64,000 bases of DNA from a virus (taxonomy: Duplodnaviria > Heunggongvirae > Uroviricota > Caudoviricetes): the IMG/VR virus record IMGVR_UViG_3300035208_002255, positions 1 to 64,000 of that record. One strand, 5' to 3'. Each line of letters starts with the position of its first letter. The first letter of the stretch is position 1. Made by a program: the position numbers and the translations under genes. Positions 6,585 to 25,949 of the stretch are shown one piece after another. The notes under the pieces were generated by a model, which was not told the DNA's origin, made no database searches, and saw only the letters and a list, made by a program, of their open reading frames with translations.

Positions 6585-6699
6585 GGATCCCTCACATAAG
6601 TGGGGAGTTCACCTAACCCGCTCCTCCATTACTATGCATTAGTATTCGCTGAATTGATTTCTTCTTCGGCGATTTCCTCTTCATAGTCGCGTACATACA

Positions 6700-6984: not shown

Positions 6985-7255
6985 TTCTTCTCCAGTATTT
7001 GTATTTGAATATGATTGATACCAATAGGAAGTTGAGTGTGTAGTTAACGATTAGTATTAAGTCTGTTGTGTAAAAATGTAAAGCATAGGCAAGCATCATA
7101 CCTTCGCCTATTAACCATAACCAAATAGTTCCGTGTGCAATACCGTTTGAGTGTCCGTCTTTCCAAGACCTATAAGCTTGGGGTAATCCCGAGAATGCAA
7201 AACAAATAGCACCGATGGTGCCGAGAAGCATAAAGAAGTTGTGAGCTGTTAGCAT
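6944..7255 (-). CDS. small integral membrane protein
   Basis: 103 aa, three hydrophobic segments. Confidence 0.4.
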   Translation of the reverse strand: MLTAHNFFMLLGTIGAICFAFSGLPQAYRSWKDGHSNGIAHGTIWLWLIGEGMMLAYALHFYTTDLILIVNYTLNFLLVSIIFKYKYWRRNGKDKEDYRDERG

Positions 7256-7827
7256 TAGAATTTGTTATCAATCATAGATATGAGTTTATCCAAAGAGCCT
7301 AAATGCTCTACTGGAATCTTTACACCTTTATGACCGTTTGTTCTAGGTATCTCTACTAGGTTATCTTTGGCCTCTAACCATCTTTTTGATATTGTAGGAA
7401 TCCAACCACCCTCATGTATGTGTGGAGTTTCTGTTTCATTCAAATGAACGAAAAGCTGGATGTATGCATCAATATTTTTGTCAACCTCTTCTTGTTTGAC
7501 AATGAGGTTGAGCCCCTGTTTGAATGGAGCATATGAAGATGTTTTGATGTTGACCTTTTTGAAAGATCCACCAACGCGGATCTCTAGATCGAAATCATCA
7601 CCAACACCACATGTAATATTCATCGTACATACTTTATCTTCTTTGGATATTTTGTCGAAGATAAAGAGTGTACCTATTAGGTCCATCAAATCCCCAGTGC
7701 CCCGAACTTCTGTTTCTAGTTCGTGCCAACCAGCGACACGGTTATGAGGAGTTAAAGATGGGGATATGTATTTAGCGAAACGAAGAAGTTGCTCAGGGAT
7801 CTCTTTCATAGAGATGTTTCTCATCAA
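7255..7827 (-). CDS. hypothetical protein
   Basis: 190 aa ORF. Confidence 0.45.
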   Translation of the reverse strand: MMRNISMKEIPEQLLRFAKYISPSLTPHNRVAGWHELETEVRGTGDLMDLIGTLFIFDKISKEDKVCTMNITCGVGDDFDLEIRVGGSFKKVNIKTSSYAPFKQGLNLIVKQEEVDKNIDAYIQLFVHLNETETPHIHEGGWIPTISKRWLEAKDNLVEIPRTNGHKGVKIPVEHLGSLDKLISMIDNKF

Positions 7828-8153
7828 TAAGAAGATAATATAATCTTAACACCAGGAGTGTCTATATAATAACGAATTACATTATCATGGTTTGAACAAC
7901 TCATATAAATGAAATCCCACGTGTCAGAATATTCTTTTATTTCTTCTACATCTGCATATTCATAAGGATGTTTTTCAACGAAATAATCTAAAATTGCATC
8001 CCTACCTTTTGCGATAATTTCAGTATCATAACAACAATTATGTTCACACCAACTTTCTAACAAGTTGAAGAGCTGTGGTTCTTTCAATCTATCAATTGCT
8101 AATATGAAAGAAGAACTAGAACTATTGCTAACAAATCCTATTCGAAATTTCAT
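7824..8153 (-). CDS. GFVSNSSSSSF-motif family protein (paralog A)
   Basis: N-terminus MKFRIGFVSNSSSSSF; about 50% identical to 8451..8783; same motif in 15409..15651 and 49365..49634. Confidence 0.5.
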   Translation of the reverse strand: MKFRIGFVSNSSSSSFILAIDRLKEPQLFNLLESWCEHNCCYDTEIIAKGRDAILDYFVEKHPYEYADVEEIKEYSDTWDFIYMSCSNHDNVIRYYIDTPGVKIILSSY

Positions 8154-8155
8154 GA

Positions 8156-8479
8156 CTACCTAATTTTAATGGGGTTTTCAGGATCAAACTCAATCCCGTT
8201 TTCTTTCAGCCAATCCAGCCAATCCTTTCTTGGCTCACCAAGTCTGTAAGTAGAGTTCTGAGTAAAGATGATATCTTTTTCAACTTTACGAATACAAGAT
8301 GTAAGAATTATCTTACCATCTGGATATTTATAGTGACCATTGACACACCCCTCGACCATTAAATCTCTAAGTTCGGGAGGGGTAAAAGCATCACCATTGC
8401 CATAAACACAAGCCCAGTTGTCAATGACAGGAATGTTGTCCATGATTATCTCAGATGTCACAAAAGAATATCTTAGCAC
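8156..8479 (-). CDS. hypothetical protein
   Basis: 107 aa ORF between the two paralogs. Confidence 0.4.
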   Translation of the reverse strand: MLRYSFVTSEIIMDNIPVIDNWACVYGNGDAFTPPELRDLMVEGCVNGHYKYPDGKIILTSCIRKVEKDIIFTQNSTYRLGEPRKDWLDWLKENGIEFDPENPIKIR

Positions 8480-8783
8480 TGCTTTTTTCTAGAAAGTGTT
8501 CAATTACATCGTCATGATAAGAAATGTCAATGTATACAAAATCCCATGTATCATCAGAGTATTCCTTTATCTCTTCTACGTTTGCGTACTCGTAAGGATG
8601 ATCTTTAGCAAAGAGATTTAGAATATCTTGTTTACCCGATGCAATCATGCATGTTTCGTAATGACACTCACGTTCACACCATGTTTCAAGTAGCTTGAAA
8701 AGCTTCGGATCTTCAACTCTATTGATACCAATCAGGAATGAAGTACTAGAACTGTTGCTAACAAATCCATCTCTAACTTTCAT
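8451..8783 (-). CDS. GFVSNSSSSSF-motif family protein (paralog B)
   Basis: MKVRDGFVSNSSSTSF...HPYEYANVEEIKEYSD shared with paralog A. Confidence 0.5.
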   Translation of the reverse strand: MKVRDGFVSNSSSTSFLIGINRVEDPKLFKLLETWCERECHYETCMIASGKQDILNLFAKDHPYEYANVEEIKEYSDDTWDFVYIDISYHDDVIEHFLEKSSAKIFFCDI

Positions 8784-9010
8784 AACTTTCCTTGTTGGTC
8801 TTTTAGTTGTTCTTTTTCAGAGATACGTGAGCGTTGCTCTTGAAGAGTTTCGTGTCTATGATGTATGCAGCTAAATCGTCTTAGCATACACATTCCGCAA
8901 CAACCAACTACGCCACCACGTCTACGCTTTTTCTTTTTGTAGTTTGCCATGTTCCTCCAAAGCCGGCGCTACCGGCGCGGCTATGAAGGAATTAAGAGTT
9001 TTAGCTACAT

Positions 9011-9346
9011 TCATATACATTTACCAAGAGGTTTATTTACAACTAATGGATGAGAGAGTGTTAGCGATGTTACTTTAAGACAAGCATTGGGTTCTGAAAT
9101 AACTTGCCTTTTAACAACTCTCCGAAGATTTGTCCAGTTGATAGGAACTGGTGCAATGTCAAAATTGAAGTCTGACTCTTTACCACATTTTGTACATCTA
9201 TACAAAACATGATTATCACCACGTTCATCGTAAGAATCTGAAACGAATGAACCAGAACAAAGTTCATTTCCGCATGTGCAATGAATATATGTTACCTGAT
9301 GTATCTCAGGTTTTAGTAGATTCTTCAGTACTTTTAGCAAGTTCAT
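9011..9346 (-). CDS. cysteine-rich zinc-finger protein
   Basis: CTCGNELCSG...CTKCG motifs. Confidence 0.4.
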   Translation of the reverse strand: MNLLKVLKNLLKPEIHQVTYIHCTCGNELCSGSFVSDSYDERGDNHVLYRCTKCGKESDFNFDIAPVPINWTNLRRVVKRQVISEPNACLKVTSLTLSHPLVVNKPLGKCI

Positions 9347-9536
9347 CTTTGTACTTTACGAGGTCGTTGTAGTCCGCTTGATTCATTAAAACTCTTGAAC
9401 GTCCATTCTTATCAACCAGATGGACAACTCCTTCTTCATCAATAGCTGGGGTAAGCGGGCCGCCAAAACTCAATGGAGGCATTGCCTCAATTAGATTTTT
9501 GATATCTTTTAAGTTTAGTTTAGTTTCAGTTGTCAT
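9306..9536 (-). CDS. hypothetical protein
   Basis: 76 aa ORF. Confidence 0.35.
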   Translation of the reverse strand: MTTETKLNLKDIKNLIEAMPPLSFGGPLTPAIDEEGVVHLVDKNGRSRVLMNQADYNDLVKYKDELAKSTEESTKT

Positions 9537-9847
9537 AATCCAGCTAAAAGCTCGTCAACATTTTCGTTATTCGCTCTCAAATGTTGCTCGATCAAAGTTC
9601 TTAATATTTCTCTTGATGGAAGCGAACTGCAAGTTCTTGTAATTGCTAGAAGTGCAAGACTTACAGTTGTTGGAAGTTTTGTAGGGTCTACGTGTTGTAG
9701 AATATCATCTACAACATCGCCTGCATCAGACTCCATCAGAGATAGGATTGTATTGAAAACGTTACGAGTAGCTAGTCTTGGATTTAACTTTGCACTTGCT
9801 TCAATAAAAGCAATCCAACTATTTACGTTTTCAGATTTGAGATTCAT
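9533..9847 (-). CDS. hypothetical protein (start trimmed to MNLKSENV)
   Basis: The first 20 codons of the ORF-track entry translate the adjacent tRNA (VVGSNPT = T-arm). Confidence 0.45.
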   Translation of the reverse strand: MNLKSENVNSWIAFIEASAKLNPRLATRNVFNTILSLMESDAGDVVDDILQHVDPTKLPTTVSLALLAITRTCSSLPSREILRTLIEQHLRANNENVDELLAGL

Positions 9848-9849
9848 TG

Positions 9850-9922
9850 TAGCGAAGGTGGGATTCGAACCCACAACTTCCTCGTTATGAGCAAGGCACT
9901 CTACCATTGAGTTACATCGCTA
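9850..9922 (-). tRNA. tRNA-Met/Ile2 (anticodon CAT)
   Basis: Acceptor AGCGATG, T-arm GTGGGTTCGAATCCCAC, anticodon loop CTCATAA. Confidence 0.75.
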
Positions 9923-10237
9923 TTCGAAATTTGGTACCGTTGGTACCACGGATTTTATCTGACGATACTTCGGAGATACTTTACCTGTTCTTCGAAGCGT
10001 CCGGTTTTTAAGTTTCTTCCAGAAGCTTCTACACTTTGCAACATGTGTAGAGTTGCAACCTTTACCAGGATTTGGATTCTCCCAAGTAGGACCATCTCTT
10101 AGTCTTTATCTTTCTGTTTTGCCGGCTTTTTATTACTTAGATCTTGGCACAACCAACAAATCATATTTGGTTCATTAGGAACTTCAGCAGGCAATTCAAA
10201 CTGCCTACCGCAAATGATACAATAAGCGTTCATGAAC

Positions 10238-10765
10238 TCAATATGAAATTATTGGTAGATCGTACACCCTATAATGTACCCTTTTCTTTTCGGGTGTCAA
10301 GGAAAATCTCTCGACCCCAGGTTTTCCAATGTAAGGAAACTTGGACGGCGAAATTACAACCAGTTTAGTTGCCATCTCTGATAGTCTCCATACCAAAGAT
10401 GGTAACATAGATCTCTCACAAAGATGAAGAGCAAACGAACATATGATACATGAATATTTGGTATTTAAAGTGTTTTGAATGATGTCCTTAAATGATAACT
10501 CGTAACATCTACAGCCAGTCATAGCCGTGTAGTTGTGGGATAAGTAAGGATCAATACCTTCTATTCTTTGGTAACCAAGGGATTGAAGTGTTTTTGTAAC
10601 TAAACCACCACCACAGGCTAGATCGAGTACATTGTCAAGTGGTAAGTCTTTATGATTCTCCAACAGCAGGGATTCTACATAACTGGAATGATTGTTTAAG
10701 TATTCAATTCCGGATGTGTAGAATCCTTGAACCCCAAGGTCTTCATAATACTTTCGGATTGACAT
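10238..10765 (-). CDS. SAM-dependent methyltransferase
   Basis: Motif I VLDLACGGGLVT. Confidence 0.6.
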   Translation of the reverse strand: MSIRKYYEDLGVQGFYTSGIEYLNNHSSYVESLLLENHKDLPLDNVLDLACGGGLVTKTLQSLGYQRIEGIDPYLSHNYTAMTGCRCYELSFKDIIQNTLNTKYSCIICSFALHLCERSMLPSLVWRLSEMATKLVVISPSKFPYIGKPGVERFSLTPEKKRVHYRVYDLPIISY

Positions 10766-11973
10766 TACTCCATCAATTGACAGAGGACATCTTTTGGTTG
10801 GTTTAGAACAAATGCTCTTACCTTAACCTGTGAGATTCTTTCAATGATAATTTCGTTAGCTGCTTTTCTTCGACGTGCGGACTTCAACCCATCAATGTAG
10901 CTGAGTAGATATTCTGCATCAACCCTACGGGCAGCACTCTTAAATACAGCAAGTGTACTATCACTAAAGAATTCTTTAGCTTTTTCCGAACTAACCCCAG
11001 AAACAACCAAAGCCCGAATGTTTGGTTCCGGATCTGTTGCAAAGATAAGTTTATCATCATCTTTGAGAATTTCAAGAAGGTTTACTTTTAATGAGTTGTA
11101 TTTCCGATCACCACGGGTCGAAAGCTTTTTAGCCATCTGAACAATCATATCATAGCTAACATTGGTAATGTTTCGCCTTTCCCATTCCACAGACATGATT
11201 GAAATCATCTCATCAATTGACTTGAGTTTATACTGAAGGTCTAGGCGTTTACCTTCTACATAGGTACGCGTAACCTCCGTTTGATTCTTAAGCCATTCAA
11301 CAGCTTCATCAACCGGAATAATTCCAGAACAAACCTGGCGCAAGTAATTCTTCGGGGGTTTGTCCATAACAATTGATTGAACAACAATCCTTAAACGATC
11401 TTCCTCTTCCTCTGTAAACGAACGAGAATGAGAATCATTAGCATCGTAAACTTCAAATTCCAAAAGACCACGACGCACAATGGCGTACTTGGTTGACCGT
11501 GCAGCTGCGGGATTTTTCACAATAAGGATGTAAAAATCATTACCCCTATTGACATAATCCTCGTAGTACGTTTGGTCTTTCATGGTTGTACACCATTTGG
11601 TGTTCGAACCATAAGTAATCATTGCCGGCTTATCATCGACACGAATACATAGGAAGTCATCGTTCTCAAAGATCTTTTGAGCGCCTTCCTTATCTTTCTC
11701 TCGCTCCTGACGTTTTGAAAGACCCATAGACTTGATAAGGTCTTCAAGAGCTTTTAAATCTTTGTACTTGTTGATATCTTTTTCTTCGAATCGCTGAGGA
11801 TTCTCATGGAAGTATTTAATACTCGCTGAAATATCCGGAACGTTATGACCTTTCTTTAACTGTTTAGCAATCCATAAAAGGTATTTATTGCTACCATCAG
11901 AAGGATCATCTATCGTTAAAGCAATTTCAGCTTGTTCTGGATATTTCTTTTGAAGTAGTTCGACTCGATTCAT
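10765..11973 (-). CDS. hypothetical protein (about 400 aa)
   Basis: Long ORF; start set at MNRVELLQ to avoid overlap with the upstream gene. Confidence 0.45.
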   Translation of the reverse strand: MNRVELLQKKYPEQAEIALTIDDPSDGSNKYLLWIAKQLKKGHNVPDISASIKYFHENPQRFEEKDINKYKDLKALEDLIKSMGLSKRQEREKDKEGAQKIFENDDFLCIRVDDKPAMITYGSNTKWCTTMKDQTYYEDYVNRGNDFYILIVKNPAAARSTKYAIVRRGLLEFEVYDANDSHSRSFTEEEEDRLRIVVQSIVMDKPPKNYLRQVCSGIIPVDEAVEWLKNQTEVTRTYVEGKRLDLQYKLKSIDEMISIMSVEWERRNITNVSYDMIVQMAKKLSTRGDRKYNSLKVNLLEILKDDDKLIFATDPEPNIRALVVSGVSSEKAKEFFSDSTLAVFKSAARRVDAEYLLSYIDGLKSARRRKAANEIIIERISQVKVRAFVLNQPKDVLCQLME

Positions 11974-11984
11974 GATGTTCTTTC

Positions 11985-12272
11985 TTACTGAAAAGCTACA
12001 AAAATAGTAAACAAGGATATTAAACATAATATCCAAATTCCTATCTTTATAAATCTATCAACTTTAGGATCTAAATACGGAAAAACGGCATTAAATATTC
12101 TCAGTGCTTTTTCTGTATCCCCAGTTTTTTCAATCTTCCTGAAAGTATCCATTACCATGTTGTAATCAACAACAATCTTGTTTTTACGCATCCAGAATTC
12201 AAAATTGTGAAGGTCCCAGTTACGAAGATGCTCTCTAGCTTCTTCTAATTGGTATTCAGTTAACTTTGCCAT
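11985..12272 (-). CDS. small protein with C-terminal transmembrane anchor
   Basis: 95 aa, C-terminal IGIWILCLISLFTIFVAF. Confidence 0.35.
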   Translation of the reverse strand: MAKLTEYQLEEAREHLRNWDLHNFEFWMRKNKIVVDYNMVMDTFRKIEKTGDTEKALRIFNAVFPYLDPKVDRFIKIGIWILCLISLFTIFVAFQ

Positions 12273-12284
12273 TTCTATGAACCT

Positions 12285-12800
12285 CTAATCATGCAAGAGA
12301 GCCTCTTCGTCAATTAATAACTTTTCTTCATATTCTAACAAATCCTGCTCGTTATCAATGGCAATAGGACAGGTACCATCACCACCTTCAATTAGCATGA
12401 GTTCATATTCACAATCCGATGAGCAACAACAATCACTAACTTCTGGAGGAAACTCAGGACGTTCTGTTAAGCTTTGTACAGGTAACCAGATTTCTTCACC
12501 ACAGTTCATGCACTTGCCAACACGCACTTCATCTCCAGGTTGGAATTTTCGATAACCAAAGATTCCAATCTGCATCTCTTTAAATTGACTAGCTGTCGGA
12601 TCGAGGATTTCACTATCAACAGTCTCACACCACCAATGATCTCTATCGCCTGCAATTGTGCTAACCCACCCAGGAACAACTATAAGTTCCGGAAATTGCT
12701 TTTGCATTTCCGTAGCACCTTGCTTACATAGACCCCAAATACTCTTTTGATTAGATACCCAATTAGCTATCCAATCATAGTATTTTTTGTTATCACTCAT
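12285..12800 (-). CDS. hypothetical cysteine-rich protein
   Basis: 171 aa ORF. Confidence 0.45.
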   Translation of the reverse strand: MSDNKKYYDWIANWVSNQKSIWGLCKQGATEMQKQFPELIVVPGWVSTIAGDRDHWWCETVDSEILDPTASQFKEMQIGIFGYRKFQPGDEVRVGKCMNCGEEIWLPVQSLTERPEFPPEVSDCCCSSDCEYELMLIEGGDGTCPIAIDNEQDLLEYEEKLLIDEEALLHD

Positions 12801-12827
12801 CTTACTGACTTTCTTAGATTGATTTGG

Positions 12828-13091
12828 TCACTGCTTGGCAAATTTACTAAGAATGTCTCGCTCGACCTGGGATTGCTTGATTACTCCACGAGCCTTAAGC
12901 GCAAGTCTTTCCCTCATCTCTTCAACGAATTCTTCCTTTAGAAACAAACTAATATCAGGGTTATTGAGTAGTTTATCGGCAATCTCAATATCAGATGCTT
13001 CATTTCTAATTTTTCCATTTGGAAATAGATGTTTAGAAAGACCATCAACTATAGACATGAATAGGTCGAATTTTGAATCAATTTCTTGCAT
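12828..13091 (-). CDS. hypothetical protein
   Basis: ORF trimmed to an internal Met to limit overlap. Confidence 0.3.
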   Translation of the reverse strand: MQEIDSKFDLFMSIVDGLSKHLFPNGKIRNEASDIEIADKLLNNPDISLFLKEEFVEEMRERLALKARGVIKQSQVERDILSKFAKQ

Positions 13092-13347
13092 GTGTACCTT
13101 TGTTTTGCAAACGCTCATAGACTGAAGAGACGGCCGCCTCGGTTGTGAGACCCATCTCATCCAGCACTTGATCGCGCCAATACACGCCTACATAGATGAC
13201 ATCCGGCTCGTCATCGAACCTAGTCTTCTTGGCATATTCTACCAAATTTGCATTCGGTTGTGTAGCAATTTCTACCGGAATCTGGAGCGATTCTATATAC
13301 CAGCTACCGCCTTCTTCACATACTATGAAATCAACTTTCCCAATCAT
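13078..13347 (-). CDS. hypothetical protein (start trimmed to MIGKVDF)
   Basis: The N-terminal 30 codons of the track ORF are the terminator hairpin. Confidence 0.35.
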   Translation of the reverse strand: MIGKVDFIVCEEGGSWYIESLQIPVEIATQPNANLVEYAKKTRFDDEPDVIYVGVYWRDQVLDEMGLTTEAAVSSVYERLQNKGTHARN

Positions 13348-13370
13348 GTAAACAATGTTGGCGTATGCGT

Positions 13371-13402
13371 AAAAGAAAAAGGCGGGTTTGAGCCCGCCTT
13401 TT
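13371..13402 (-). terminator. Rho-independent terminator (hairpin GGCGGGTTTGAGCCCGCC flanked by A and T runs)
   Basis: Perfect 7-bp GC stem with a U-run on the minus strand, just after the ABC ATPase stop. Confidence 0.7.
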
Positions 13403-13420
13403 CCCGCTTTTCCTGAGCAA

Positions 13421-15412
13421 TCAGGATTTAGCGCCAACACTCAGCATGTAGTCTTCGATTTCGTTCACCGCCTCAATGAAGTGAGGTGAGCGCTTCATGC
13501 TTTTATCTCGTACGAACGGTAGAGGGGATCTGAACATCTTACGAATGTTTCCAGGATTCCTTCCCATCACGTAGATATCATCACCAAGATATACAGCTTC
13601 AGGAATATCATGGGTGACGAATACAACTGTTGGATTGATATCCGCCCAAATCTTAGCAAGAAGGTCCTGCATCTGTAGACGGGTTTCGATGTCCAAAGCT
13701 CCGAATGGTTCATCCATTAAAAGAATCTCTGAGTGATAAACCAGAGAGCGAGCAATTGCTACACGCTGAAGCTGGCCACCGGAAAGCGTTGGATACTGAG
13801 CGTATTTGTCTTCGTGACCTTCGAGACCCACAAGCTTGATCATTTCCATGGCTTTCTCTCTGCGCTGTTTGAGAGGAATGCCTTGGTATTCAAGACCCAG
13901 AGCCACGTTGTCAAGAACGCTCATCCATGGAAATGAAGAGTACTGTTGGAAGACCATTCCAACCCTATCTTCCTGTGTTCTTTCTCGCCCATGAATAAGG
14001 ATCTTTCCAGAAGTTGGGGTTTGAAGACCAGAGATATACCTAAGTATAGTTGAATTGTGAACAACAAATCCATTGGCCACAAAAGAATGAGATTCTGGAT
14101 TTGTTAGATCGTACACATCACTTTCTGATACTTCAATATTTGAAATTCTTCTATAATCGCGAATTAGAGGTTCTTTATTAGATTTTGGTTGTTGTTTTCT
14201 TCCTAGTTTAAACAGCTTATAAAGATTTTTAGATTGACGAATGTATACTCTATGAGATTTTCCACGAAATGATCTTTTGTATCCAATACCCATTGTAGAT
14301 AGCATAACGCATACAAAATCAATTAACTCTTTGGAATTTAATGCAATTTCGGCATCTTTATTATTTACACGAGAGTATCCATCTGTATCAAACAAACCTT
14401 GTAAAAATCGTAGTTGATGGTTGAACGAACTTTGTCGAATGCATTTTGGAACATCTTTTGTATCAGCATTAACATTACCAAAGATTTTGTGTAGCCAATA
14501 TGTAAAATGATTACTTTCTTTTGGTCGCAATAAAACTGCTTTTGTTCCATTTTTTTCACTTTGAGTAACTTCCACTCCAAATGTTTTTAGAGTGTATGTT
14601 TTGAAGAAATCGATCAATTCTTGATCGGCGGAAGTAAAACTAAATTGTTCACCAACAGAACCGTCGCCAGCAATCAAACCAAAATAATATGCAATGTTAC
14701 TAGATACAAAACCAGGAGCTTTAAACTTTGGTTTTTTGAGTTGATTTCTAACAACCCTATTAACAATCATTGGGCTAATATCTAGTAACTTTGCAATTTC
14801 TCTTTGGTTTAAACCTATCCTTTTATATCGTCGGATTTTTCGCTGCTTGGAAAAGAAACTTTTAGGAATTGCTCTGGGTAAACAGACCCGATCTTCCTGT
14901 GATTCGAAATTCATCTGCAAACCTTCTTTGGCAATAAAGTGCCCAATTTTAAGGTTTGCCATGGACATCCACTCTTCTTTGTTAGCAATTTTAACAAGAA
15001 CAGGATGTTCTGGAGTGCCCTCCAATCTATCTCCATCTTCTGTTGTTATGATTATAGTTTTTTTCTTACCACCATAATAAGTATGAGAGATTCTTTGATT
15101 CTCATTAGCTACCAGAACACCAAAATTGTTTCTTGGCATTGGCTGGTTTACCGGATGTTGTTCATCAAATAAATCTTCAATTCTACGAAGACCAGTTTCG
15201 CAAGTAACCCATGTACCTTTAGCTACACATTTGCCACAACCCGAAGCACCAAGCAAGACAACAAACTGTCCCTGATTCGGCTTGTCTTCAATGAGAAGAT
15301 TGAAGTCCTCGATGATAGGGGGCTTGCCATCATAGACCTGTGAAATACCACTCAATTCAATGATATCAGGAAGTTCTGTATTGGTGAATTTAACTGGTTG
15401 TTCCATAATCAA
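13421..15412 (-). CDS. ABC transporter ATP-binding protein (NitT/TauT family) interrupted by an intein
   Basis: Walker A GASGCGK is split; C-extein has LSGGQLQRVAIARSL, Walker B LLMDEPFGALD and an H-loop; 663 aa, of which 271 aa are extein. Confidence 0.85.
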   Translation of the reverse strand: MIMEQPVKFTNTELPDIIELSGISQVYDGKPPIIEDFNLLIEDKPNQGQFVVLLGASGCGKCVAKGTWVTCETGLRRIEDLFDEQHPVNQPMPRNNFGVLVANENQRISHTYYGGKKKTIIITTEDGDRLEGTPEHPVLVKIANKEEWMSMANLKIGHFIAKEGLQMNFESQEDRVCLPRAIPKSFFSKQRKIRRYKRIGLNQREIAKLLDISPMIVNRVVRNQLKKPKFKAPGFVSSNIAYYFGLIAGDGSVGEQFSFTSADQELIDFFKTYTLKTFGVEVTQSEKNGTKAVLLRPKESNHFTYWLHKIFGNVNADTKDVPKCIRQSSFNHQLRFLQGLFDTDGYSRVNNKDAEIALNSKELIDFVCVMLSTMGIGYKRSFRGKSHRVYIRQSKNLYKLFKLGRKQQPKSNKEPLIRDYRRISNIEVSESDVYDLTNPESHSFVANGFVVHNSTILRYISGLQTPTSGKILIHGRERTQEDRVGMVFQQYSSFPWMSVLDNVALGLEYQGIPLKQRREKAMEMIKLVGLEGHEDKYAQYPTLSGGQLQRVAIARSLVYHSEILLMDEPFGALDIETRLQMQDLLAKIWADINPTVVFVTHDIPEAVYLGDDIYVMGRNPGNIRKMFRSPLPFVRDKSMKRSPHFIEAVNEIEDYMLSVGAKS
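14054..15229 (-). mobile_element. intein (392 aa) with LAGLIDADG homing endonuclease domain in the ABC ATPase P-loop
   Basis: Starts with Cys right after GASGCGK, ends ...FVVHN followed by Ser; LAGLIDADG blocks YYFGLIAGDGS and LQGLFDTDGYS. Confidence 0.8.
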
Positions 15413-15651
15413 TCCTCACTATCATCAGTTCCCAAAAAATCATCGTAGTATTCAGGCCCGTCTTCATCTTCTACAGGTTTTTGCACAAAGAAGGCTCGCT
15501 TCTTTCGGTGATACAACATTTCAAGTTTGAACTTGAATTTTGAAAACATTCTTTTAAGATCATCAATCTTTCCAAGTATGCCGGTTCTCGGCGTGTAGAT
15601 TACAAAAGATGATGAGCTAGAGTTTGATACAAAACCTGTTCGGATTTTCAT
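15409..15651 (-). CDS. GFVSNSSSSSF-motif family protein (paralog C)
   Basis: Internal start MKIRTGFVSNSSSSSF; upstream codons overlap the permease gene. Confidence 0.45.
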   Translation of the reverse strand: MKIRTGFVSNSSSSSFVIYTPRTGILGKIDDLKRMFSKFKFKLEMLYHRKKRAFFVQKPVEDEDGPEYYDDFLGTDDSED

Positions 15652-15652
15652 A

Positions 15653-16438
15653 TCACACCCTGTTCTTATATGGAAAGAATTGCTTATCCAAAGCTTTGAA
15701 GATGATATCTTGAACGAAGCCAACTACCACAATTACGAACAGCAAAGCAAACACTTTGTCAATCCGGCTTTGACGAGCTGAGGTAAACAGCATAGCACCG
15801 ATACCGCCATTGTTGTTAACCATTTCAGCTACGATGATGTACGTCCAAGAGATTGCTACCAGAACTCGGATATCATCAAACAGTTTTGAGAACACAGCTG
15901 GAAAGAACACGGTCTTGATTGTTTGCCACTTGGAAGCTCCCAATGTGAATGCCGTTTGCTGATAAACGCTTTCGACTTGTTCGACTCTTTGTACAACCAC
16001 TGGTAGTAGGTAAACGATGATACCGAAAGCCAGGAATTGAATCTTCATCATATCAAAGATACCAAACCACACGATGAAGAGGCCAGTGATTGCAGTGAGT
16101 GGAATGAATCGGATGGCATCAACCGGCTTTGCAAACAATCCCTTAAACAAAGGGAATAAACCAATCAGAAAGCCAAGGGGAACACATACTGCAACCGCTT
16201 CAAAGTAACCCATTAGATTGAGATACATTGACCTTCCCAATTGCCTCACCATCGCATCATCAAAGTGAAGTTCAGGGAGACATGCAATTACAGCACCAGG
16301 ACTAGGAAGAAGGGTAGGAGGAACGAGGTGGATTGCGGTGATTAGGTACCATACAAACAAGAGACTCAGACCGCCAACGATACCGATGACAGTCTGAGTC
16401 TTCTCATTCAGAGTACCTCTTAGTTCAAAGAGGTTCAT
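15653..16438 (-). CDS. ABC transporter permease (TauC/SsuC/NrtB-like)
   Basis: Six hydrophobic segments; EAA-like loop TAFTLGASKWQTIKTVFFPA. Confidence 0.75.
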   Translation of the reverse strand: MNLFELRGTLNEKTQTVIGIVGGLSLLFVWYLITAIHLVPPTLLPSPGAVIACLPELHFDDAMVRQLGRSMYLNLMGYFEAVAVCVPLGFLIGLFPLFKGLFAKPVDAIRFIPLTAITGLFIVWFGIFDMMKIQFLAFGIIVYLLPVVVQRVEQVESVYQQTAFTLGASKWQTIKTVFFPAVFSKLFDDIRVLVAISWTYIIVAEMVNNNGGIGAMLFTSARQSRIDKVFALLFVIVVVGFVQDIIFKALDKQFFPYKNRV

Positions 16439-16443
16439 CTGTT

Positions 16444-18000
16444 TTACATCTCCAAGATTTGGAACTCAGTTCGACGATTCCTTGCAAGGCAGACGGGAGT
16501 GTCTTCATTACAAGCGGGCTTGCTAGGTCCGTTACCAACAACAATGAAGCGGTTGGTATCGAAACCATGCTTTTGCACAAGATAGTCTACCACAGCTTGA
16601 GCACGTTGACGAGAAATTTGAATGTTAACTGCAGCAGATCCAGTCTTGTCAGTGTTACCCTCAACTCGAATACGAGATGTGGGGAACGCCTTCAATTGCT
16701 CAACAACCTTATCATCGATGATAGTCTGAGAATTCTCATCCAAGGTTACAGAACCATGAGCAAACGAAATCTTAACCGGCTTAGAAGCGACTGCATGAGC
16801 CGTAACATCGCGCTGAGTCGGAGCCGTAAACGTAGGCTTAGCCTCGGCAGCAACTTCGCCAGGAACCTGGAGAGAGCTAATGAACGAAGTATCAGCAACT
16901 ACATTCCAAGGTAGAGACTTGCTTGCGAGATTCAGACGACCGTAAACGGTAGTCATCTTCTCATAGATGCTTCGACCAGTTACACCAGCATACGAAGAGT
17001 TGAGACCGTAGAAGTCCTTGTTGTCGCCAAGGGTCGTGAGACGCACATTACCAAGAGACGCAAGAGCAAACTCTTTGGTAACATTCTGAAGGCCCTCAGA
17101 GAGGATCTGGGCCGCACGTTGCTTCGCAGCATCCGAACCGTTGATCTCAACAGCACCACGGAGCCAACCTTCAACCAGCTTCTTCAGATCAGCCTTGTGT
17201 GCATTGTAGTAAGCTTCCTTGACCATGAAGCCATCTGCAATGATGTTCGCCGCCTGCTTAGTGCTAACAAGCACCTTAGCTGCACTCACAGATTTCACAC
17301 AATCAGCATCATCCGGAGACCACACAACAGCTGCATCAACCTGTCCAGCCTTGAATGCTGCAGCTGCATCGATAGCACTGGGAACCTTGACAATGTTCAC
17401 ATCCATGATGCTAAGGCCACCCATATCTAACATCCACAACAGGAAGGTGTGAGACGGAGTTCCTTCAGCAACAGCAATCTTCTTTCCCTGAAGGTCAACA
17501 ACAGATCCAATGTTACTCTTAGTAACAATCGCATCACCACCACGAGACCAGTCAGCCTGGAAGAGGAACTTCACATTCTCGCCGTAATTGCCAGACTCAG
17601 TTGGGAAGGCGTCAACAGTCACCCACATAAGATCCATTGCACCAGACTTGAATGCCGCACGAGAAGCAGCGAAGTCATCCATCACGGAGAAGTTCACACA
17701 GATACCGTCCTGACGAAACTTGGAGTTCGCGTTATCTTTGAACCCATTGTTCCAGTACTGACCGCCGGCATAACCAGGCCATGTCACGACACCAACATTA
17801 ATACATCCGTTTCCAGCTGCGGAAGTTCCGGAAACAGATCCAGAAGCTCCAGGACCAGCCATCAGGCCAGAGACATCTTGTTGTCCCTTACCCTGAGGAA
17901 GAATGTACGGAGCACCAAACTTGTACCCAACGAACATAAATGTTGCGATGAGTGCAAGAATAACAATCTTACCACCAGCCTTAATCTTTACCTTAGCCAT
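16444..18000 (-). CDS. ABC substrate-binding protein (SsuA/TauA/NMT1-like) fused to C-terminal OmpA-like domain
   Basis: N-terminal transmembrane anchor, PBP2 fold, C-terminal NTDKTGSAAVNIQISRQRAQAVVDYL...NRRTEF OmpA signature. Confidence 0.65.
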   Translation of the reverse strand: MAKVKIKAGGKIVILALIATFMFVGYKFGAPYILPQGKGQQDVSGLMAGPGASGSVSGTSAAGNGCINVGVVTWPGYAGGQYWNNGFKDNANSKFRQDGICVNFSVMDDFAASRAAFKSGAMDLMWVTVDAFPTESGNYGENVKFLFQADWSRGGDAIVTKSNIGSVVDLQGKKIAVAEGTPSHTFLLWMLDMGGLSIMDVNIVKVPSAIDAAAAFKAGQVDAAVVWSPDDADCVKSVSAAKVLVSTKQAANIIADGFMVKEAYYNAHKADLKKLVEGWLRGAVEINGSDAAKQRAAQILSEGLQNVTKEFALASLGNVRLTTLGDNKDFYGLNSSYAGVTGRSIYEKMTTVYGRLNLASKSLPWNVVADTSFISSLQVPGEVAAEAKPTFTAPTQRDVTAHAVASKPVKISFAHGSVTLDENSQTIIDDKVVEQLKAFPTSRIRVEGNTDKTGSAAVNIQISRQRAQAVVDYLVQKHGFDTNRFIVVGNGPSKPACNEDTPVCLARNRRTEFQILEM

Positions 18001-18002
18001 GA

Positions 18003-19034
18003 TTATCCTTTATTGTTGAAGAAGCTCGCCATTGCAGACGAAGTTTGTGTTTGGGTTTCGTATCCGGTATATTCTGGCAATGCTTGGGTTTCAGTTCCAG
18101 TCGTTGCAATTCGAACCTTACCAACATTGCGCTTGTCTTCGTAACTCAACAGGGAACCATTCTGCTCGAAACTTTCCAACATTGCAAGTCCTTTTTCATC
18201 CCAGACTCCGTTTTGCAGATCAACGTTCATCATGAAGCCTTCGGACAACTCCATGAAAGTCTCCATCTCCCCGAGTTTATTGGCAATGTCTTCGGCAAGG
18301 AATTCGGCCGATTGCTCGAATAGTTCCTTTGCTTCCGAACCGGCAACCAAAACTTCGGCGGACTTCATTGCCTTGTGCGCAGCCTTGACAGACTTGTATT
18401 CCATTTCCAAAATACGAATCTGATCTGCAGTATCATCACGAAGGAACGAAACAGAGTTCCGCATCTTCATAAGAATACGACCAAGGAACTCCATCTTCTC
18501 ACTGATGGTTTGAAGCTTCTTGATGAAATCCTGAGAACGCGCCGCCTTTCGAGCATTTGCAGCAATAGCTACTTGATTATTATTCTTCTTGGCAGCATTC
18601 GCCATATGCATGGCATCCTCTGCAATTTGCCTCTCTTCAGCAATGGTACGATCAAGCTTCTTCTTCTGACCATTTAGCTTGCCGATATTATCAGCAATGG
18701 CTTGAAGACGCTCATCCATGTCATCAAGGTAATTCTTGAGAATACCAATCGGATCAATAGTGATAAAGAAACTAGTTAATGCGCGCATTGCACTCTTGAA
18801 CATTGCTCCGGCAAGTGCTCGTACCTTGTTATTCATCACCAATGCAATAAGAGCAAAGAGTGTACCACCAAGGAATGCGGCATATAAAGTGTTAGCTAGA
18901 GCTGCAATAATGAATGGCATCAGATAGTTTCCAGCAAATAGGAAACCAAGGATACCAATGAAAATGAAGATCATTCCAGTGCGCCCCTCAGGACGCTCGA
19001 AGAAACCTTTTACCTTACGTTGCATGTCTTCCAT
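18003..19034 (-). CDS. membrane-anchored coiled-coil protein
   Basis: Two N-terminal transmembrane helices, then a long heptad-rich region. Confidence 0.45.
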   Translation of the reverse strand: MEDMQRKVKGFFERPEGRTGMIFIFIGILGFLFAGNYLMPFIIAALANTLYAAFLGGTLFALIALVMNNKVRALAGAMFKSAMRALTSFFITIDPIGILKNYLDDMDERLQAIADNIGKLNGQKKKLDRTIAEERQIAEDAMHMANAAKKNNNQVAIAANARKAARSQDFIKKLQTISEKMEFLGRILMKMRNSVSFLRDDTADQIRILEMEYKSVKAAHKAMKSAEVLVAGSEAKELFEQSAEFLAEDIANKLGEMETFMELSEGFMMNVDLQNGVWDEKGLAMLESFEQNGSLLSYEDKRNVGKVRIATTGTETQALPEYTGYETQTQTSSAMASFFNNKG

Positions 19035-19045
19035 GATAATTCCCC

Positions 19046-19729
19046 TTATGCGACAACAATGTATGTTTCGATCTTTTGCTTATCGCCTTGGAGTTTACCA
19101 GAGACGAAATTATAGGTTGCCTCAAAAGAGGCGGCAGTCTGTTGAATATTGAGTCGTTCACGACCAATCTCGGAATTGATCTCAAGAGCTTCTTGTTGCT
19201 TTGCAGCAATGGCAGCTTGTGCTTCTTGAATTTGCTGCAACAGAGTTTGGATCTCCGCTTCTTTAGCAGTCTTAAGGTCTTCACGCTTTGTGACTTCACG
19301 AGCGTTCATCTGATCAACCTGAATTTGGAATTCCTTCTTTTTGGAATCCAAGATACCTTGGTAATGATCGATGGCTTTTAAAAGACCATCCTTTGTAAGG
19401 CCCATTGTGGATGCAGTAGTGAAGACTGCAATATACTTCTGGTTTTCCGGCAGTGGAGCGCTTGCCATTGCCGCCAACGCGTTTCGGAACTCGATATAAT
19501 CGAATCCTGGAATGTTAGCTTCTTCAATTGCCTGTGAGAGAAAATTGACCATCTTCTCATCAACAGCCCCGGGAATAGCGGGAGCTGCAATTTGAACAGT
19601 TGCAGGTTGAGTTGGCGGAACTACAGATGTTGCCGCAGCATATCCCGGAGCAGGTTGAGCAGGCTTCTTCTCCTGCGGGGGAGGAGCATTCTCAACTTCA
19701 ACAAACATACTTGCTAATTTGCCAAACAT
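19046..19729 (-). CDS. proline/alanine-rich coiled-coil protein
   Basis: N-terminal PPPQEKKPAQPAPG low complexity, then a coiled coil. Confidence 0.4.
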   Translation of the reverse strand: MFGKLASMFVEVENAPPPQEKKPAQPAPGYAAATSVVPPTQPATVQIAAPAIPGAVDEKMVNFLSQAIEEANIPGFDYIEFRNALAAMASAPLPENQKYIAVFTTASTMGLTKDGLLKAIDHYQGILDSKKKEFQIQVDQMNAREVTKREDLKTAKEAEIQTLLQQIQEAQAAIAAKQQEALEINSEIGRERLNIQQTAASFEATYNFVSGKLQGDKQKIETYIVVA

Positions 19730-19731
19730 TT

Positions 19732-20238
19732 CTACCTCTTTAATGCCCGAAGTAGTTCAGGCTTCTTTAGTTGTCCAATATCACAGCAGTACTTCTCTCC
19801 GAAACCAAAATCTTTCTTTGGTAACTTGATAAGTGCTGTGTGAGTTATCCAGCCAATGTCTTCGAATCCAGTCTCAACAGAACCCAGAATAACTATGTAG
19901 ATATCAGCCCAACGTTGGGGTTCATTAGGATTAACAATCAGATGTCCCTTATCTCTGGGCTGTCCATCCTTCTGAAGACCCAACCATACCACCTCTACGG
20001 AAAGAGGTAAAGTGAAATCGGATCCTCCATCTCCCTTTTTCCCAACTGTCGCATCGAACGGCTGATCATACTCTTGAGCTGCGAAGTATTCCGCAGCAGT
20101 GGCATTGATGTCATTATCAATGGAACACTCAGAACCATCAGATCGATAACCAGAAATACCAACAGCTCTCTTTGATAGGTACCGAGCTTCAGCTAGTGCT
20201 TTTACCAGACGAAGGGTTGTATCGTCAAGCTTTTTCAT
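19732..20238 (-). CDS. hypothetical protein
   Basis: 168 aa ORF. Confidence 0.4.
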   Translation of the reverse strand: MKKLDDTTLRLVKALAEARYLSKRAVGISGYRSDGSECSIDNDINATAAEYFAAQEYDQPFDATVGKKGDGGSDFTLPLSVEVVWLGLQKDGQPRDKGHLIVNPNEPQRWADIYIVILGSVETGFEDIGWITHTALIKLPKKDFGFGEKYCCDIGQLKKPELLRALKR

Positions 20239-20606
20239 TTAACTCTCCGAAAAGAACTTCCTCGACCATTATCAACTCTTCCATCTGCGGTCATAACGGT
20301 TAATCCTTGAGCTTTTGCTTTTTTAATGTATTCATCATGAGCTTCTGGAGTAAATCCTTTTTTACGTTTTGGCTGATCGCTTGCGGGCAAAGAAACGGGT
20401 GCAACCGCAACACTACTCTCACCATTTGTCATGGTTTCGGTATCAATTGCAAACCCAAATTTATCTATACTAGGGTTCGAACTTGAGTTAAGCGGTAGTG
20501 TTACTTCTGGACTTGTAAAGTAAGTCTCAAAGAATTGCTGCGCTTTATCCCTAGACTCTTTCCATCGTTTTTCGTAAAGATCATCAATCTCTTTTAGATA
20601 ACTCAT
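20235..20606 (-). CDS. hypothetical protein
   Basis: 123 aa ORF. Confidence 0.4.
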   Translation of the reverse strand: MSYLKEIDDLYEKRWKESRDKAQQFFETYFTSPEVTLPLNSSSNPSIDKFGFAIDTETMTNGESSVAVAPVSLPASDQPKRKKGFTPEAHDEYIKKAKAQGLTVMTADGRVDNGRGSSFRRVK

Positions 20607-20614
20607 ATTCCCTC

Positions 20615-20650
20615 CAAGAAAAAAGGGGACGGGATAAACCCGTCCCCCTT
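20615..20650 (-). terminator. Rho-independent terminator
   Basis: Hairpin GGGGACGGGATAAACCCGTCCCC followed by a U-run on the minus strand, just after the flotillin-like gene stop. Confidence 0.7.
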
Positions 20651-20668
20651 TGGACTAAACAATTTAAC

Positions 20669-22972
20669 TTAGGTTGCCTTTTCCATCAGAGTCTTGTTAC
20701 CAGTCAGGTATTGAAGTAGTGCGAGTGACATGAGTCCACTCTGATCCTTCTCACCAGAAGAACCACCTCCAACATACACATCAGGAATGAGCTTTAGCTT
20801 GTTACTAGCAATTCGCTCCACAACCTGAATCTGACCGAAGACCTCATTACCCATAGCTTGAACCTGAAGCTTGTAAGCTTCAGCATTGGACTTACCTTGT
20901 TCTAGGATAACGAGAGCTTGTGCAAGACCCTTCTTCTCGATAGCTTCTGCGTCCGCAACTGCGTTGACCTTAGTTGCTTCAGCGTCAGCACCTGCCTTCA
21001 AACGTGTTGCCTTCGCAGCACCCTCAGCACGAATCTCGACAGCACGAGCATCACCAGTGGATTTCTCGATCTCTGCATTTGCAAAGTTCTTCGAGATTTC
21101 AACACCACGCTCTGCCTCTACAACCTTGGGCTGCATATTAGCCTGAGCCTTAGCATTTTCAAACTGACGGCGCTCTTCCTGAGCTTGCTTCTGAGTGGTG
21201 AAGGTCATCTTCTCTTGCTCAGCAATTTGTCGATCTGTAACTGTACGAGTCAGCTCAGTGGGAAGAACAACATCTGCAATCATCGTATCCTTGGATTCGA
21301 TGTGGTGAATGCGAAGCACGCTCTGGATATGTTCCTTGGCGCGCTCTTGCAGTTCAGCACGTTTGGTGTACAAATCCAATGCCTTAACGGATTGTGCTGC
21401 GTTACGGAAGTGAGATGAGATTGCGGGTTCGAGAACCTGCGAAATCATGTTGTCTACAGATCCTAGGTTTGCAACAACCTTCGGAGCGTCTGACATTGCG
21501 ATATGGATAATAACAGAGACATCCATATTCGCATTAAACGCATCAGCGGTACGCAGAGTGATGGTTTTCAGATTGGAATCCAAAGCATGAGCGCTGGACT
21601 CGTTGTCTGCCCAATTCAAAAGAATCTGAGTTGTAGGCACCTTATCAACCTTACAGACGCGAGTGTTGATTGGATGCTTGCCAGGTCCAAGAGGCTCAGC
21701 CCAAATACCCTTCTTACCAGTCTGGACAATCTTCGCGTTCACGTCCGCGTTTGTGGTATCTTCACCTTCATCACCAACGAATGAGGTTACAACACCACAT
21801 TCACCAATGCAGACCTCAACCATTGGAACTTGTTCAATCATTGCGAACCAAGGATTGATAGCATAGTTACCAGAGCGAAGAACCGGAATCTGCAGACCCT
21901 TCTGACCCTTTTCAGCAAGAAATGCAGCGGCATTTTGGAAGTTATTATGAACCTCGATGGATACTTCATTAGCTGCAATCTTGGATGCATCGATAATTGG
22001 ACGACCTTCAAGGATAGTTACAATACCGATAGCCTCTGGTCCAATATAGACCCAAGGAACAACCTTCACGATGTTAAACAGGGCTGTATTGATACGATAC
22101 GTTCCTGGCATGAGAATCTCAAGCTGATGACCTTTCTGACCACCATTCTGCAAGAATGCATTACCATTCTCAAAGTTTGAATGCCCATCAACTTTTTTAC
22201 CAAGAAGAGATCCGTCAGGAATACGAGATCCATCCATTGCAGAGATAAGGCCCATATGACCGTTCGGAATCACGGTGACAGGCTTATTCTCAACATGGAA
22301 CAATCTTGTATTGATACGGTAGTTTCCAGGAGGAAGAACAGCAATCTGAGGACCCTTTTGACCACCATTCTTAAGGAACAAGTCTGCGTCCTGGAAGTGA
22401 TCGCAATCAACGGGTTCAGCGAAAATACGACCAACAGCACAAGCCTGACCTGCAATAGATTCAACGAGACCAATTTCATCTTCTCCGATGATAATAGCCT
22501 TCTCAATATTAATCACAAATAGATGTGGGTTAATCTGATATTGGCCAGGAGGCAAGATGGCCAGCTGGGGCCCTTTCTCTCCACCATTCTTCAGGAATGC
22601 TTCACCATCTTGAAACAGATTACAATCAATGGTCTTAGCAAAGAATTGTCCAGTAGGCATTGGCTTACCGGTAATTGCAGTAATAATACCGATCTGGTGA
22701 GTGCCAATGTTGGTGAACTTATGTTTTGTAACAGTGTTGATAAAAGGAATGAAGAAGTGGATACCAGGGCCGAGCGTACGGGCCTGAACACCAACCTCAT
22801 TTCCAATAGCAACGGTACGACCATCTGTCATGGTCTTACCGAAATATTTGCGTTCGAACGTAATGAATTCATCACCACCAGCAATAGCAAAACTGGTGAA
22901 GAAGAAAACCAGTCCGACGATTGCCCCGATAATGACGAGGTAATGCGCCAAAATGAAATTCAGAATAAACAT
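20669..22972 (-). CDS. flotillin/SPFH (band-7) family protein with five N-terminal ~55-aa tandem repeats
   Basis: N-terminal transmembrane segment; repeats FLKNGG.KGPQ...PG.Y.IN..LF; SPFH core; C-terminal AEAEA/EAIEKKG flotillin-type repeats. Confidence 0.65.
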   Translation of the reverse strand: MFILNFILAHYLVIIGAIVGLVFFFTSFAIAGGDEFITFERKYFGKTMTDGRTVAIGNEVGVQARTLGPGIHFFIPFINTVTKHKFTNIGTHQIGIITAITGKPMPTGQFFAKTIDCNLFQDGEAFLKNGGEKGPQLAILPPGQYQINPHLFVINIEKAIIIGEDEIGLVESIAGQACAVGRIFAEPVDCDHFQDADLFLKNGGQKGPQIAVLPPGNYRINTRLFHVENKPVTVIPNGHMGLISAMDGSRIPDGSLLGKKVDGHSNFENGNAFLQNGGQKGHQLEILMPGTYRINTALFNIVKVVPWVYIGPEAIGIVTILEGRPIIDASKIAANEVSIEVHNNFQNAAAFLAEKGQKGLQIPVLRSGNYAINPWFAMIEQVPMVEVCIGECGVVTSFVGDEGEDTTNADVNAKIVQTGKKGIWAEPLGPGKHPINTRVCKVDKVPTTQILLNWADNESSAHALDSNLKTITLRTADAFNANMDVSVIIHIAMSDAPKVVANLGSVDNMISQVLEPAISSHFRNAAQSVKALDLYTKRAELQERAKEHIQSVLRIHHIESKDTMIADVVLPTELTRTVTDRQIAEQEKMTFTTQKQAQEERRQFENAKAQANMQPKVVEAERGVEISKNFANAEIEKSTGDARAVEIRAEGAAKATRLKAGADAEATKVNAVADAEAIEKKGLAQALVILEQGKSNAEAYKLQVQAMGNEVFGQIQVVERIASNKLKLIPDVYVGGGSSGEKDQSGLMSLALLQYLTGNKTLMEKAT

Positions 22973-23055
22973 TCTTGTCCTTGTGTTTGGGGGTAATTCC
23001 CAGTAGCCGACAGTGTGGCATACTCAGTTTCCCAAGTCAAGAACTTTCTGTTTGG

Positions 23056-25911: not shown

Positions 25912-25949
25912 TGAACTATTCCCAAGGTGATGATGTTTTGTTCCATGAT

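Follow-up and report, generated by a model that had tools for sequence, protein, structure and literature searches.

Known inteins cluster overwhelmingly in proteins of replication, repair, nucleotide metabolism and DNA packaging, a bias that has been used to argue for functional retention. The gap between the invariant Lys and the nucleophilic Thr of the ATP-binding loop (P-loop) was described by Kelley et al. as the 'classic' P-loop site of intein insertion, with two terminase sites lying one residue apart (PMC5050341). The main text of the survey by Novikova et al. records P-loop inteins in DnaB, MCM, RFC and many other proteins, and in it the inteins of bacterial PolIII-gamma are located past Walker B instead of in the P-loop (PMC4760082). 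There is also precedent for a P-loop Ser acting as the +1 splicing nucleophile and for ATPase activity being lost while a P-loop intein is in place (PMC6195587). Here we describe an insert at the same position of the P-loop in a gene for the ATPase of an ATP-binding cassette (ABC) transporter, found on a stretch of 64,000 nucleotides from IMG/VR virus record IMGVR_UViG_3300035208_002255 (Caudoviricetes), which as a whole is called the window below. Judging from its sequence and a predicted structure, we consider it highly likely that the insert at 14054..15229 of the window is a genuine class-1 intein with a double-motif LAGLIDADG homing endonuclease and a small helix-turn-helix (HTH)-like module, which would splice itself out of its host protein and cleave DNA.

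The insert in Walker A and the ATPase around it

A sequence-only reading of the window had placed an insert of 392 amino acids (aa) in the Walker A motif at 14054-15229; this position was confirmed to the base, and the strand, which the reading had lacked, is minus. The insert stands between the Lys and the Ser of the motif (GASGCGK/CVAKGTW ... FVVHN/STILRYISGL, slashes marking junctions), and both junctions are in frame, with no stop codon and no change of frame. That the insert is an intein with a LAGLIDADG endonuclease, as the reading also held, was supported by profile searches for both parts. The precursor matched LAGLIDADG_3 (2.5e-15, in two stretches) and Intein_splicing (3e-13) in Pfam, both exceeding the gathering scores. 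In NCBIfam, intein_Nterm scored 35.8 bits against a cut-off of 24.5 and intein_Cterm 27.9 against 15.6, and the remaining matches were intein-containing versions of IF-2, RNR, DnaB, GyrA, V-ATPase and RtcB. Splicing blocks A, B, F and G are all present, with the TxxH of block B as T72-P-E-H75, and the two LAGLIDADG blocks that had been pointed out are intact (AYYFGLIAGDGSV and RFLQGLFDTDGYS; residues and positions in Table 1).

The assignment was supported by conservation and by predicted structure. In an alignment of 53 related sequences, C1, H75, K258, D374, H391 and N392 are invariant, while conservation is 90% or higher at D189 and D283; all 16 alleles found in ABC ATPases have retained blocks A, B, F and G. 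An AlphaFold (AF2) model of the intein built on this alignment had a predicted local distance difference test score (pLDDT) of 95.2 and a predicted template modelling score (pTM) of 0.92. The model contains a Hint fold, its Hint and LAGLIDADG parts fold as a single unit, and its order of secondary structure fits the duplicated alpha-beta-beta-alpha-beta-beta-alpha LAGLIDADG fold. Compared with the PDB by Foldseek, it matched endonuclease-bearing inteins best, with TliVMA at the top (3e-21), followed by PhoVMA, PI-TkoII, PI-PfuI and PI-SceI (down to 1e-13); lower matches were the free LAGLIDADG enzymes I-DmoI and I-Tsp061I (E 5e-8 to 1e-5, TMt ~0.6) and the mini-intein cores 4oz6 and 1am2. By sequence, the best PDB match of the intein was 7qsu (1.2e-6). 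The three-helix module between the Hint and endonuclease parts matched HTH_23 (1.5e-3) and HTH_3 (2.7e-3) in Pfam, both under the cut-off, and is probably an accessory DNA-binding domain. In base composition, the intein has a GC content of 33.9%, and 21% at third codon positions (GC3), compared to 44.9% and 43.5% for the exteins; GC3 in the other genes of the transporter cassette is ~0.45.

Two other types of element were considered and rejected. A class 3 intein was ruled out by the presence of the canonical Cys1, and a bacterial intein-like (BIL) domain by the HN/S C-terminal junction, the embedded LAGLIDADG domain and the restored host motif.

Removing the insert in silico restores an ABC ATPase in which all motifs follow in order within one domain: Walker A GASGCGKST, Q-loop MVFQQ, signature LSGGQ, Walker B/D-loop ILLMDEPFGALD and H-loop VTHD. 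The coding DNA of the spliced junction reads CTTGGTGCTTCGGGTTGTGGCAAA/TCAACTATACTTAGGTATATCTCT. This restoration had been proposed from the sequence with a product of 271 aa, a length that holds if translation begins at the TTG at 15412, where the mechanical call of the open reading frame (ORF) starts (13421..15412, minus strand, 663 aa). The ATG at 15406 is the more likely start because it is preceded by a GAGGA Shine-Dalgarno sequence and yields an N terminus (MEQPV...) like those of the homologues P0001 (MEQPV) and P0121 (MEHPV); the spliced ATPase is then 269 aa long.

The extein is a NitT/TauT-type ABC ATPase, the nucleotide-binding subunit of an importer, by its profile and sequence matches. 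Pfam ABC_tran matched the precursor at 7e-24, exceeding the gathering score, and the spliced extein matched TauB in NCBIfam at 1.5e-60; the nearest solved structures are NrtD (8wm7_D, 2.5e-44) and CmpD. The view that the two extein halves form one protein of this type also held, with the uninterrupted homologue P0121 95% identical to the spliced product. Since every equivalog cut-off was missed (204.8 bits against 357 for TauB PRK11248, 177.3 against 291.8 for ntrCD), the protein can be named at the family level only, with no substrate assigned.

Filled and empty alleles, related inteins and a second insertion site

With the precursor as query against 5.8 billion proteins, the same intein arrangement was found in 15 full-length proteins and one partial protein (P0002), all of them metagenomic and labelled at most 'NitT/TauT family ATP-binding protein'. 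The same junctions occur in at least 16 independently assembled metagenomic proteins (JGI, ENA, Logan). With the spliced extein as query, more than 100 intein-less clusters were recovered at 64-95% identity. P0121, the best intein-less homologue, is 269 aa long and has an uninterrupted GASGCGKSS. The contigs that encode it (L003 and L004) are ~87% identical in DNA to window positions 12451-18931 and keep the same gene order, and the alignment is interrupted at 15229/14056, where exactly 1176 bp are absent and the empty site reads GCGK/SSVLRY. These contigs, 84-87% identical to the window on either side, also lack 234 bp at 12826..13059, within a 110-aa ORF (12828..13160), another small presence/absence difference in the neighbourhood of the intein.

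In a neighbour-joining tree built from the spliced exteins, alleles filled at the window's site (site A), alleles filled at a neighbouring site (site B, below) and empty alleles were interleaved throughout, even among exteins 85-95% identical, a sporadic distribution of the kind that homing leaves in populations. Selection was assessed against the closest intein-bearing relative (L002, 84% aa identity). For the intein, the nonsynonymous difference (pN) was 0.09 and the synonymous difference (pS) 0.66, giving a dN/dS of ~0.06, and the endonuclease domain gave 0.055; synonymous sites are near saturation in every part, so these values are rough. For the exteins, pN was 0.12 with pS saturated. The low dN/dS argues that the splicing and endonuclease parts are both under purifying selection and that both functions are maintained. 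One relative (P0010) lacks the HTH module and the first LAGLIDADG motif and retains the splicing blocks, a stage of decay that is expected in a homing cycle. The intein is real, and probably active and mobile.

Megablast of window positions 13000-18100 against 50,697 phage records gave no match, and the lineage is one without a close cultured or deposited relative at the DNA level. A tblastn search of the intein against phages returned distant matches only, at 23-30% identity, to inteins in a Staphylococcus phage helicase and a Vibrio phage terminase, which are uninformative on its origin.

More distant relatives of the intein were found in other P-loop proteins. A hidden Markov model (HMM) of the 16 ABC inteins detected ~45 further inteins among the proteins of the first search, all at GxxGxGK/C...HN/S or T, in PhoH, MutS, FtsH/AAA, DnaB, RadA-like, RecD/UvrD-like and DnaX-like proteins. 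An exhaustive HMMER scan of 1.84 billion representatives gave 2908 relatives at E <= 1e-3 and six at E <= 1e-30, the latter comprising four ABC alleles and two DnaX-like clamp loaders. These two (P0029 and P0242; PF13177, the DNA polymerase III delta'/gamma-tau family) are the closest non-ABC relatives, at 39-40% identity (E 5.5e-59 and 1.2e-44), with junctions GTGK/C and GCGK/C ... HN/T. Because the closest relatives outside the ABC family share this junction in a clamp-loader gene, the comparison suggests that the intein has jumped between two unrelated P-loop genes, one for an ABC ATPase and one for a clamp loader. The P-loop DnaX site of these two proteins may itself be undescribed.

In six homologues of the ATPase (P0017-P0021 and P0033; for example L008 6001..7803), the P-loop is interrupted two codons further upstream by a different insert, 320-325 aa long. 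Its junctions are G-x-S-G/CVD...FITGN/CGKST, with Gly, not His, before the terminal Asn, and a protein 93% identical to the P0017 extein has this site empty (P0196). The insert gave a sub-threshold LAGLIDADG signal in Pfam, no Pfam intein domain and no PDB sequence match. Its predicted structure (pLDDT 73, ~90 in the endonuclease core) had the TliVMA intein as best match (1.7e-12), and on this prediction alone the insert is identified, with moderate confidence, as an intein. As the model best matches an intein, two unrelated inteins would therefore target overlapping stretches of one P-loop in this ATPase family.

The sequence-only reading had called the ABC ATPase an uncommon location for an intein. 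In terms of position this did not hold, since the GK/S or T gap is the best-known point of intein insertion; in terms of host it did, the gene family of ABC importer ATPases being an unusual and apparently unreported one for an intein at this ordinary site. We found no report of an intein in an ABC transporter in the full-text literature searched or in the main text of either survey, and an ABC intein may already be listed in the supplement of Novikova et al., the larger of the two. Nothing specific came up on ABC transporters in huge phages. Literature co-mentions of inteins and ABC transporters were incidental only; one of them (PMC9403480) proved irrelevant, its inteins being in nrdJ, gyrB and gmd.

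Proposed splicing and homing, and other explanations

From the conserved residues and established intein chemistry, we infer a class-1 splicing pathway. The 661-aa precursor would be translated with a split ATP-binding loop and hence be unable to bind ATP. Cys1 would undergo an N-S acyl shift, the Walker A Ser (+1) would attack the resulting thioester, and Asn392, helped by His391, would cyclise and free the intein, with an O-N shift joining the exteins. The reaction is predicted to yield the 269-aa ATPase, its GASGCGKST restored, together with the 392-aa endonuclease in free form. In related phages infecting the same cell, the endonuclease would cut alleles without the intein at their uninterrupted P-loop coding sequence, and recombinational repair would copy the 1176 bp into the cut allele, a process known as homing.

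Several points weigh against this account. First, splicing, activation of the ATPase and DNA cleavage are all inferred, from the sequence and the model. Second, the closest empty allele, on L003, differs from the window flanks at nine of 48 bases around the site and reads SSVL in place of STIL, and with these differences it may be resistant to cleavage and not serve as a target at present. Third, the Thr of block B, present in the window, varies among the ABC alleles (T/S/L/G). Fourth, the near-saturation of synonymous sites leaves the dN/dS values approximate. Lastly, none of the 20 window ORFs scanned was identified as a capsid or terminase gene, and phage origin is assigned by context.

The alternative that survives best, which we regard as unlikely but deserving of real weight, is that splicing is retained while the endonuclease is inactive on any existing target, so that the intein is a stranded passenger, passed on vertically and retained solely because its imprecise loss would destroy the P-loop. 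In favour of this, the nearest empty allele is divergent around the site, frank decay of the endonuclease is seen in the relative P0010, and inteins are difficult to delete from essential catalytic sites. However, the window intein retains its two catalytic Asp residues and the conserved Lys, its endonuclease domain has the low dN/dS given above, and the interleaving of filled and empty alleles among exteins 85-95% identical implies that gains or losses have been recent.

The N-extein Cys at -3 and Cys1 of the intein together spell C-G-K-C, which raises the possibility of conditional splicing as a switch, in which, under oxidising conditions, a disulfide between Cys-3 and Cys1 (a 'redox trap') would prevent the precursor from splicing and so leave the transporter inactive. 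A C-x-x-C arrangement is found in the window and in 14 of the 16 site-A alleles. According to Callahan 2011, reviewed in PMC3922620, a Cys-3/Cys1 disulfide governs the splicing of both an engineered intein (Ssp DnaE) and a native one (Pab MoaA), and oxidative control of a DnaB P-loop intein has been demonstrated in vivo (PMC6195587). We nevertheless consider this switch improbable. Cys-3 is the usual Walker A residue of this ABC family and intein-less homologues also read SGCGKS, so that its presence does not speak for selection of a trap; Ser stands at -3 in two alleles (P0003 and P0010), and the bacterial cytoplasm is reducing. A regulatory role for C-G-K-C that ties activation of the transporter to the redox state of the infected Bacteroidota cell is, by the same measure, speculative and doubtful. 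If it were true, the locus would be a natural system for conditional splicing and for intein-intein interference in huge phages, with two inteins competing two codons apart.

Far less probable is a splicing-dead insert in an ATPase pseudogene, within a decaying transporter operon. Nothing specific favours it beyond the default worry about a 1.2-kb insert in a catalytic loop, and against it the frame of 661 codons is open, all splicing residues are canonical, the exteins are strongly constrained (by the comparison with L002 and the identity to P0121 given above), and the permease and binding-protein genes are intact. An assembly chimera, a free-standing endonuclease inserted in frame or a group I intron ORF can be practically dismissed: in-frame insertions other than inteins do occur in this genome, as shown by an HNH insert without Hint blocks at 29041-30078, but the present junctions recur across independent assemblies, neither shows a stop codon or a change of frame, and Hint blocks flank the endonuclease and fold with it as one unit in the model. 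A splicing intein with a functional homing endonuclease remains our preferred reading.

The transporter cassette, its genomic setting and comparison with known systems

The ATPase is the last gene of a cassette that runs from a 227-aa protein through a PspA/IM30-like protein, a binding protein-OmpA-like fusion, a TauC-like permease and a small ORF (Table 1). The permease and binding-protein genes are intact, and their synteny with the ATPase is kept in seven related loci. The slot of the 104-aa ORF is also filled by a small ORF in those relatives that have one, with no conservation of sequence.

Table 1. Features of the intein, its host gene and the surrounding cassette in the window.
Feature	Position	Strand	Details
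Precursor gene, intein-interrupted ABC ATPase	13421..15406	minus	661 aa from ATG at 15406; stop TGA at 13421-13423
N-extein	15230..15406	minus	59 aa; ends ...VVLLGASGCGK, first part of Walker A
Intein, class 1, with LAGLIDADG endonuclease (predicted)	14054..15229	minus	392 aa, 1176 bp; residues 62-453 of the 663-aa ORF
N-terminal Hint half	14915..15229	minus	Block A CVAKGTWVTCETG, Cys1 at 15227-15229; block B GDRLEGTPEHPVLV, Thr72 at 15014-15016, His75 at 15005-15007
HTH-like three-helix module, between Hint and endonuclease	14735..14872	minus	Intein aa 120-165; helices 123-137, 142-149 and 153-160 in the model
LAGLIDADG endonuclease domain	14195..14719	minus	Intein aa 171-345; from profile, alignment, model and structure matches
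LAGLIDADG motif 1	14654-14692	minus	GLIAGD189G; catalytic Asp189 at 14663-14665
Conserved Lys258 of the endonuclease domain	14456-14458	minus	
LAGLIDADG motif 2	14372-14410	minus	GLFDTD283G; catalytic Asp283 at 14381-14383
C-terminal Hint half	14054..14194	minus	Block F SDVYDLTNPESHSFVAN (VYD374LT), Asp374 at 14108-14110; block G GFVVHN, His391-Asn392 at 14054-14059
C-extein	13424..14053	minus	210 aa; opens with Ser+1 (TCA, 14051-14053), the Walker A Ser; then Q-loop, LSGGQ, Walker B, D-loop and H-loop
Small ORF between permease and ATPase	15409..15723	minus	104 aa; no family match
ABC permease, BPD_transp_1, TauC/SaoP-like	15653..16438	minus	Membrane partner of the ATPase
Substrate-binding protein, NMT1/SsuA-like	16444..18000	minus	Fused to C-terminal OmpA-like peptidoglycan-binding domain
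Two upstream genes: PspA/IM30-like and 227-aa protein	18003..19729	minus	PspA/IM30-like protein of 343 aa; co-travel with the transporter in related phage contigs and a Bacteroidales chromosome contig

The cassette occurs on metagenomic contigs of 25-300 kb that are full of small unannotated genes; the 135-kb and 302-kb JGI contigs were compared by their gene tables. It is present without the intein in a 735,411-bp 'uncultured phage' (LR756503), where it adjoins a baseplate-like Phage_base_V gene, and more distant homologues are found in the Lak megaphages of Prevotella. Its presence on an 840-kb Bacteroidales chromosome-like contig points to a host-derived module and to a host among the Bacteroidota. 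The make-up of the cassette (13421..19729 in the window; also on L001, L003, L005, L007 and L008) may indicate an envelope-related system rather than a simple nutrient importer.

The window also contains HNH endonucleases, a PhoH gene, AAA ATPases of phage families and members of PHROG families, together with 37 tRNA genes within 1014..58968, all of them minus-strand and together serving most amino acids. The earlier claim that the ATPase is phage-encoded is very likely, being strongly suggested by this context, short of proof, and the setting fits a probable huge phage of Bacteroidota. On one related contig (L005, from GCA_050302375.1), an EF-Tu-like GTPase and an anti-Pycsar Apyc1-like protein of the metallo-beta-lactamase fold lie near the cassette (1..1122 and 12412..13248), a content consistent with a large phage that carries translation and anti-defence genes.

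Several other features of the window were recorded. First, the tRNA genes include (especially at 31840..31934 and 58407..58486) one of 95 nt with anticodon TTA, called as 'Stop', which may suppress UAA, and another whose anticodon loop is irregular; recoding is not evident in the ORFs, which appear intact under the standard code. Second, an unrelated LAGLIDADG intein lies in a PhoH-like ATPase gene at 62576..64000 (minus strand), which runs past the end of the window. Its C-terminal junction is ...DDFIVTHN/TLLEKLDPYMQ, and its C-extein covers PhoH profile positions 69-188; in contrast to the ABC intein, it lies elsewhere than the P-loop Lys/Ser site. Third, the HNH insert at 29041..30078 (minus strand) is a NUMOD4 + HNH_3 segment in frame within a DUF5662-family protein (~aa 97-210 onward), after which the DUF5662 match continues; this may be a domain insertion that the protein tolerates, or a self-removing element that has gone unrecognised. 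Lastly, a 767-aa SPFH/Band-7 protein and two paralogous AAA ATPases are encoded at 20669..22972, 25950..27344 and 30183..31712 (minus strand), and one of the paralogues has a strong match to PHROG 10440 and shows 37-40% identity to FtsH-like proteins from a range of phages, among them an uncultured phage of 595 kb.

If read correctly, the ABC intein adds the ABC superfamily to the hosts of the classic P-loop insertion, which then reach beyond the nucleic-acid-metabolism network. This would favour a simpler view, in which any highly conserved P-loop coding sequence that circulates among co-infecting phages can be colonised, and would leave the understanding of how inteins work unchanged. Current annotation pipelines give these proteins, which are over twice as long as normal, the plain label 'NitT/TauT family ATP-binding protein', and the putative site-B intein is invisible to the Pfam intein model. 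With its near-identical filled and empty alleles and an intein at a neighbouring site, the family offers a natural system for homing and site competition, and the 392-aa protein is a candidate new rare-cutting endonuclease.

Compared with described elements, the intein shares its motif position, GxxGxGK/S or T, with the 'classic' P-loop inteins (mycobacteriophage TerL1-a, DnaB-b, MCM-a, RFC-a and Pho RadA). As in these, the Walker A Ser/Thr is the +1 nucleophile, the host ATPase should gain activity only on splicing, and the element is in a phage genome, a probable one in this case; a second insertion point is found 1-2 residues away, which recalls TerL1-a and TerL1-b. Its architecture of Hint plus two-motif LAGLIDADG is that of the archaeal VMA inteins (TliVMA and PhoVMA; 7qss/7qsu/7qst), PI-SceI, PI-PfuI and PI-TkoII, but sequence identity to them is only 13-19% and the host ATPase is of a different family. 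The accessory part here is an HTH-like three-helix module, whereas PI-SceI has a DNA-recognition region and PI-PfuI a stirrup. The inteins of the DnaX-like clamp loaders have the same junction (GK/C...HN/T) in a different host gene and are themselves uncharacterised. As for the transporter, it resembles NitT/TauT systems (NrtD, CmpD, TauB, SsuB) in its family match and in that the ATPase shares its operon with a TauC-like permease and an NMT1/SsuA-like binding protein; it differs from them in the OmpA-like domain joined to the binding protein and in the PspA-like gene that accompanies the cassette. What separates this intein from the classic P-loop inteins is its host: an ABC importer's nucleotide-binding subunit does not belong to the network of replication, repair and packaging proteins in which most known inteins are found.

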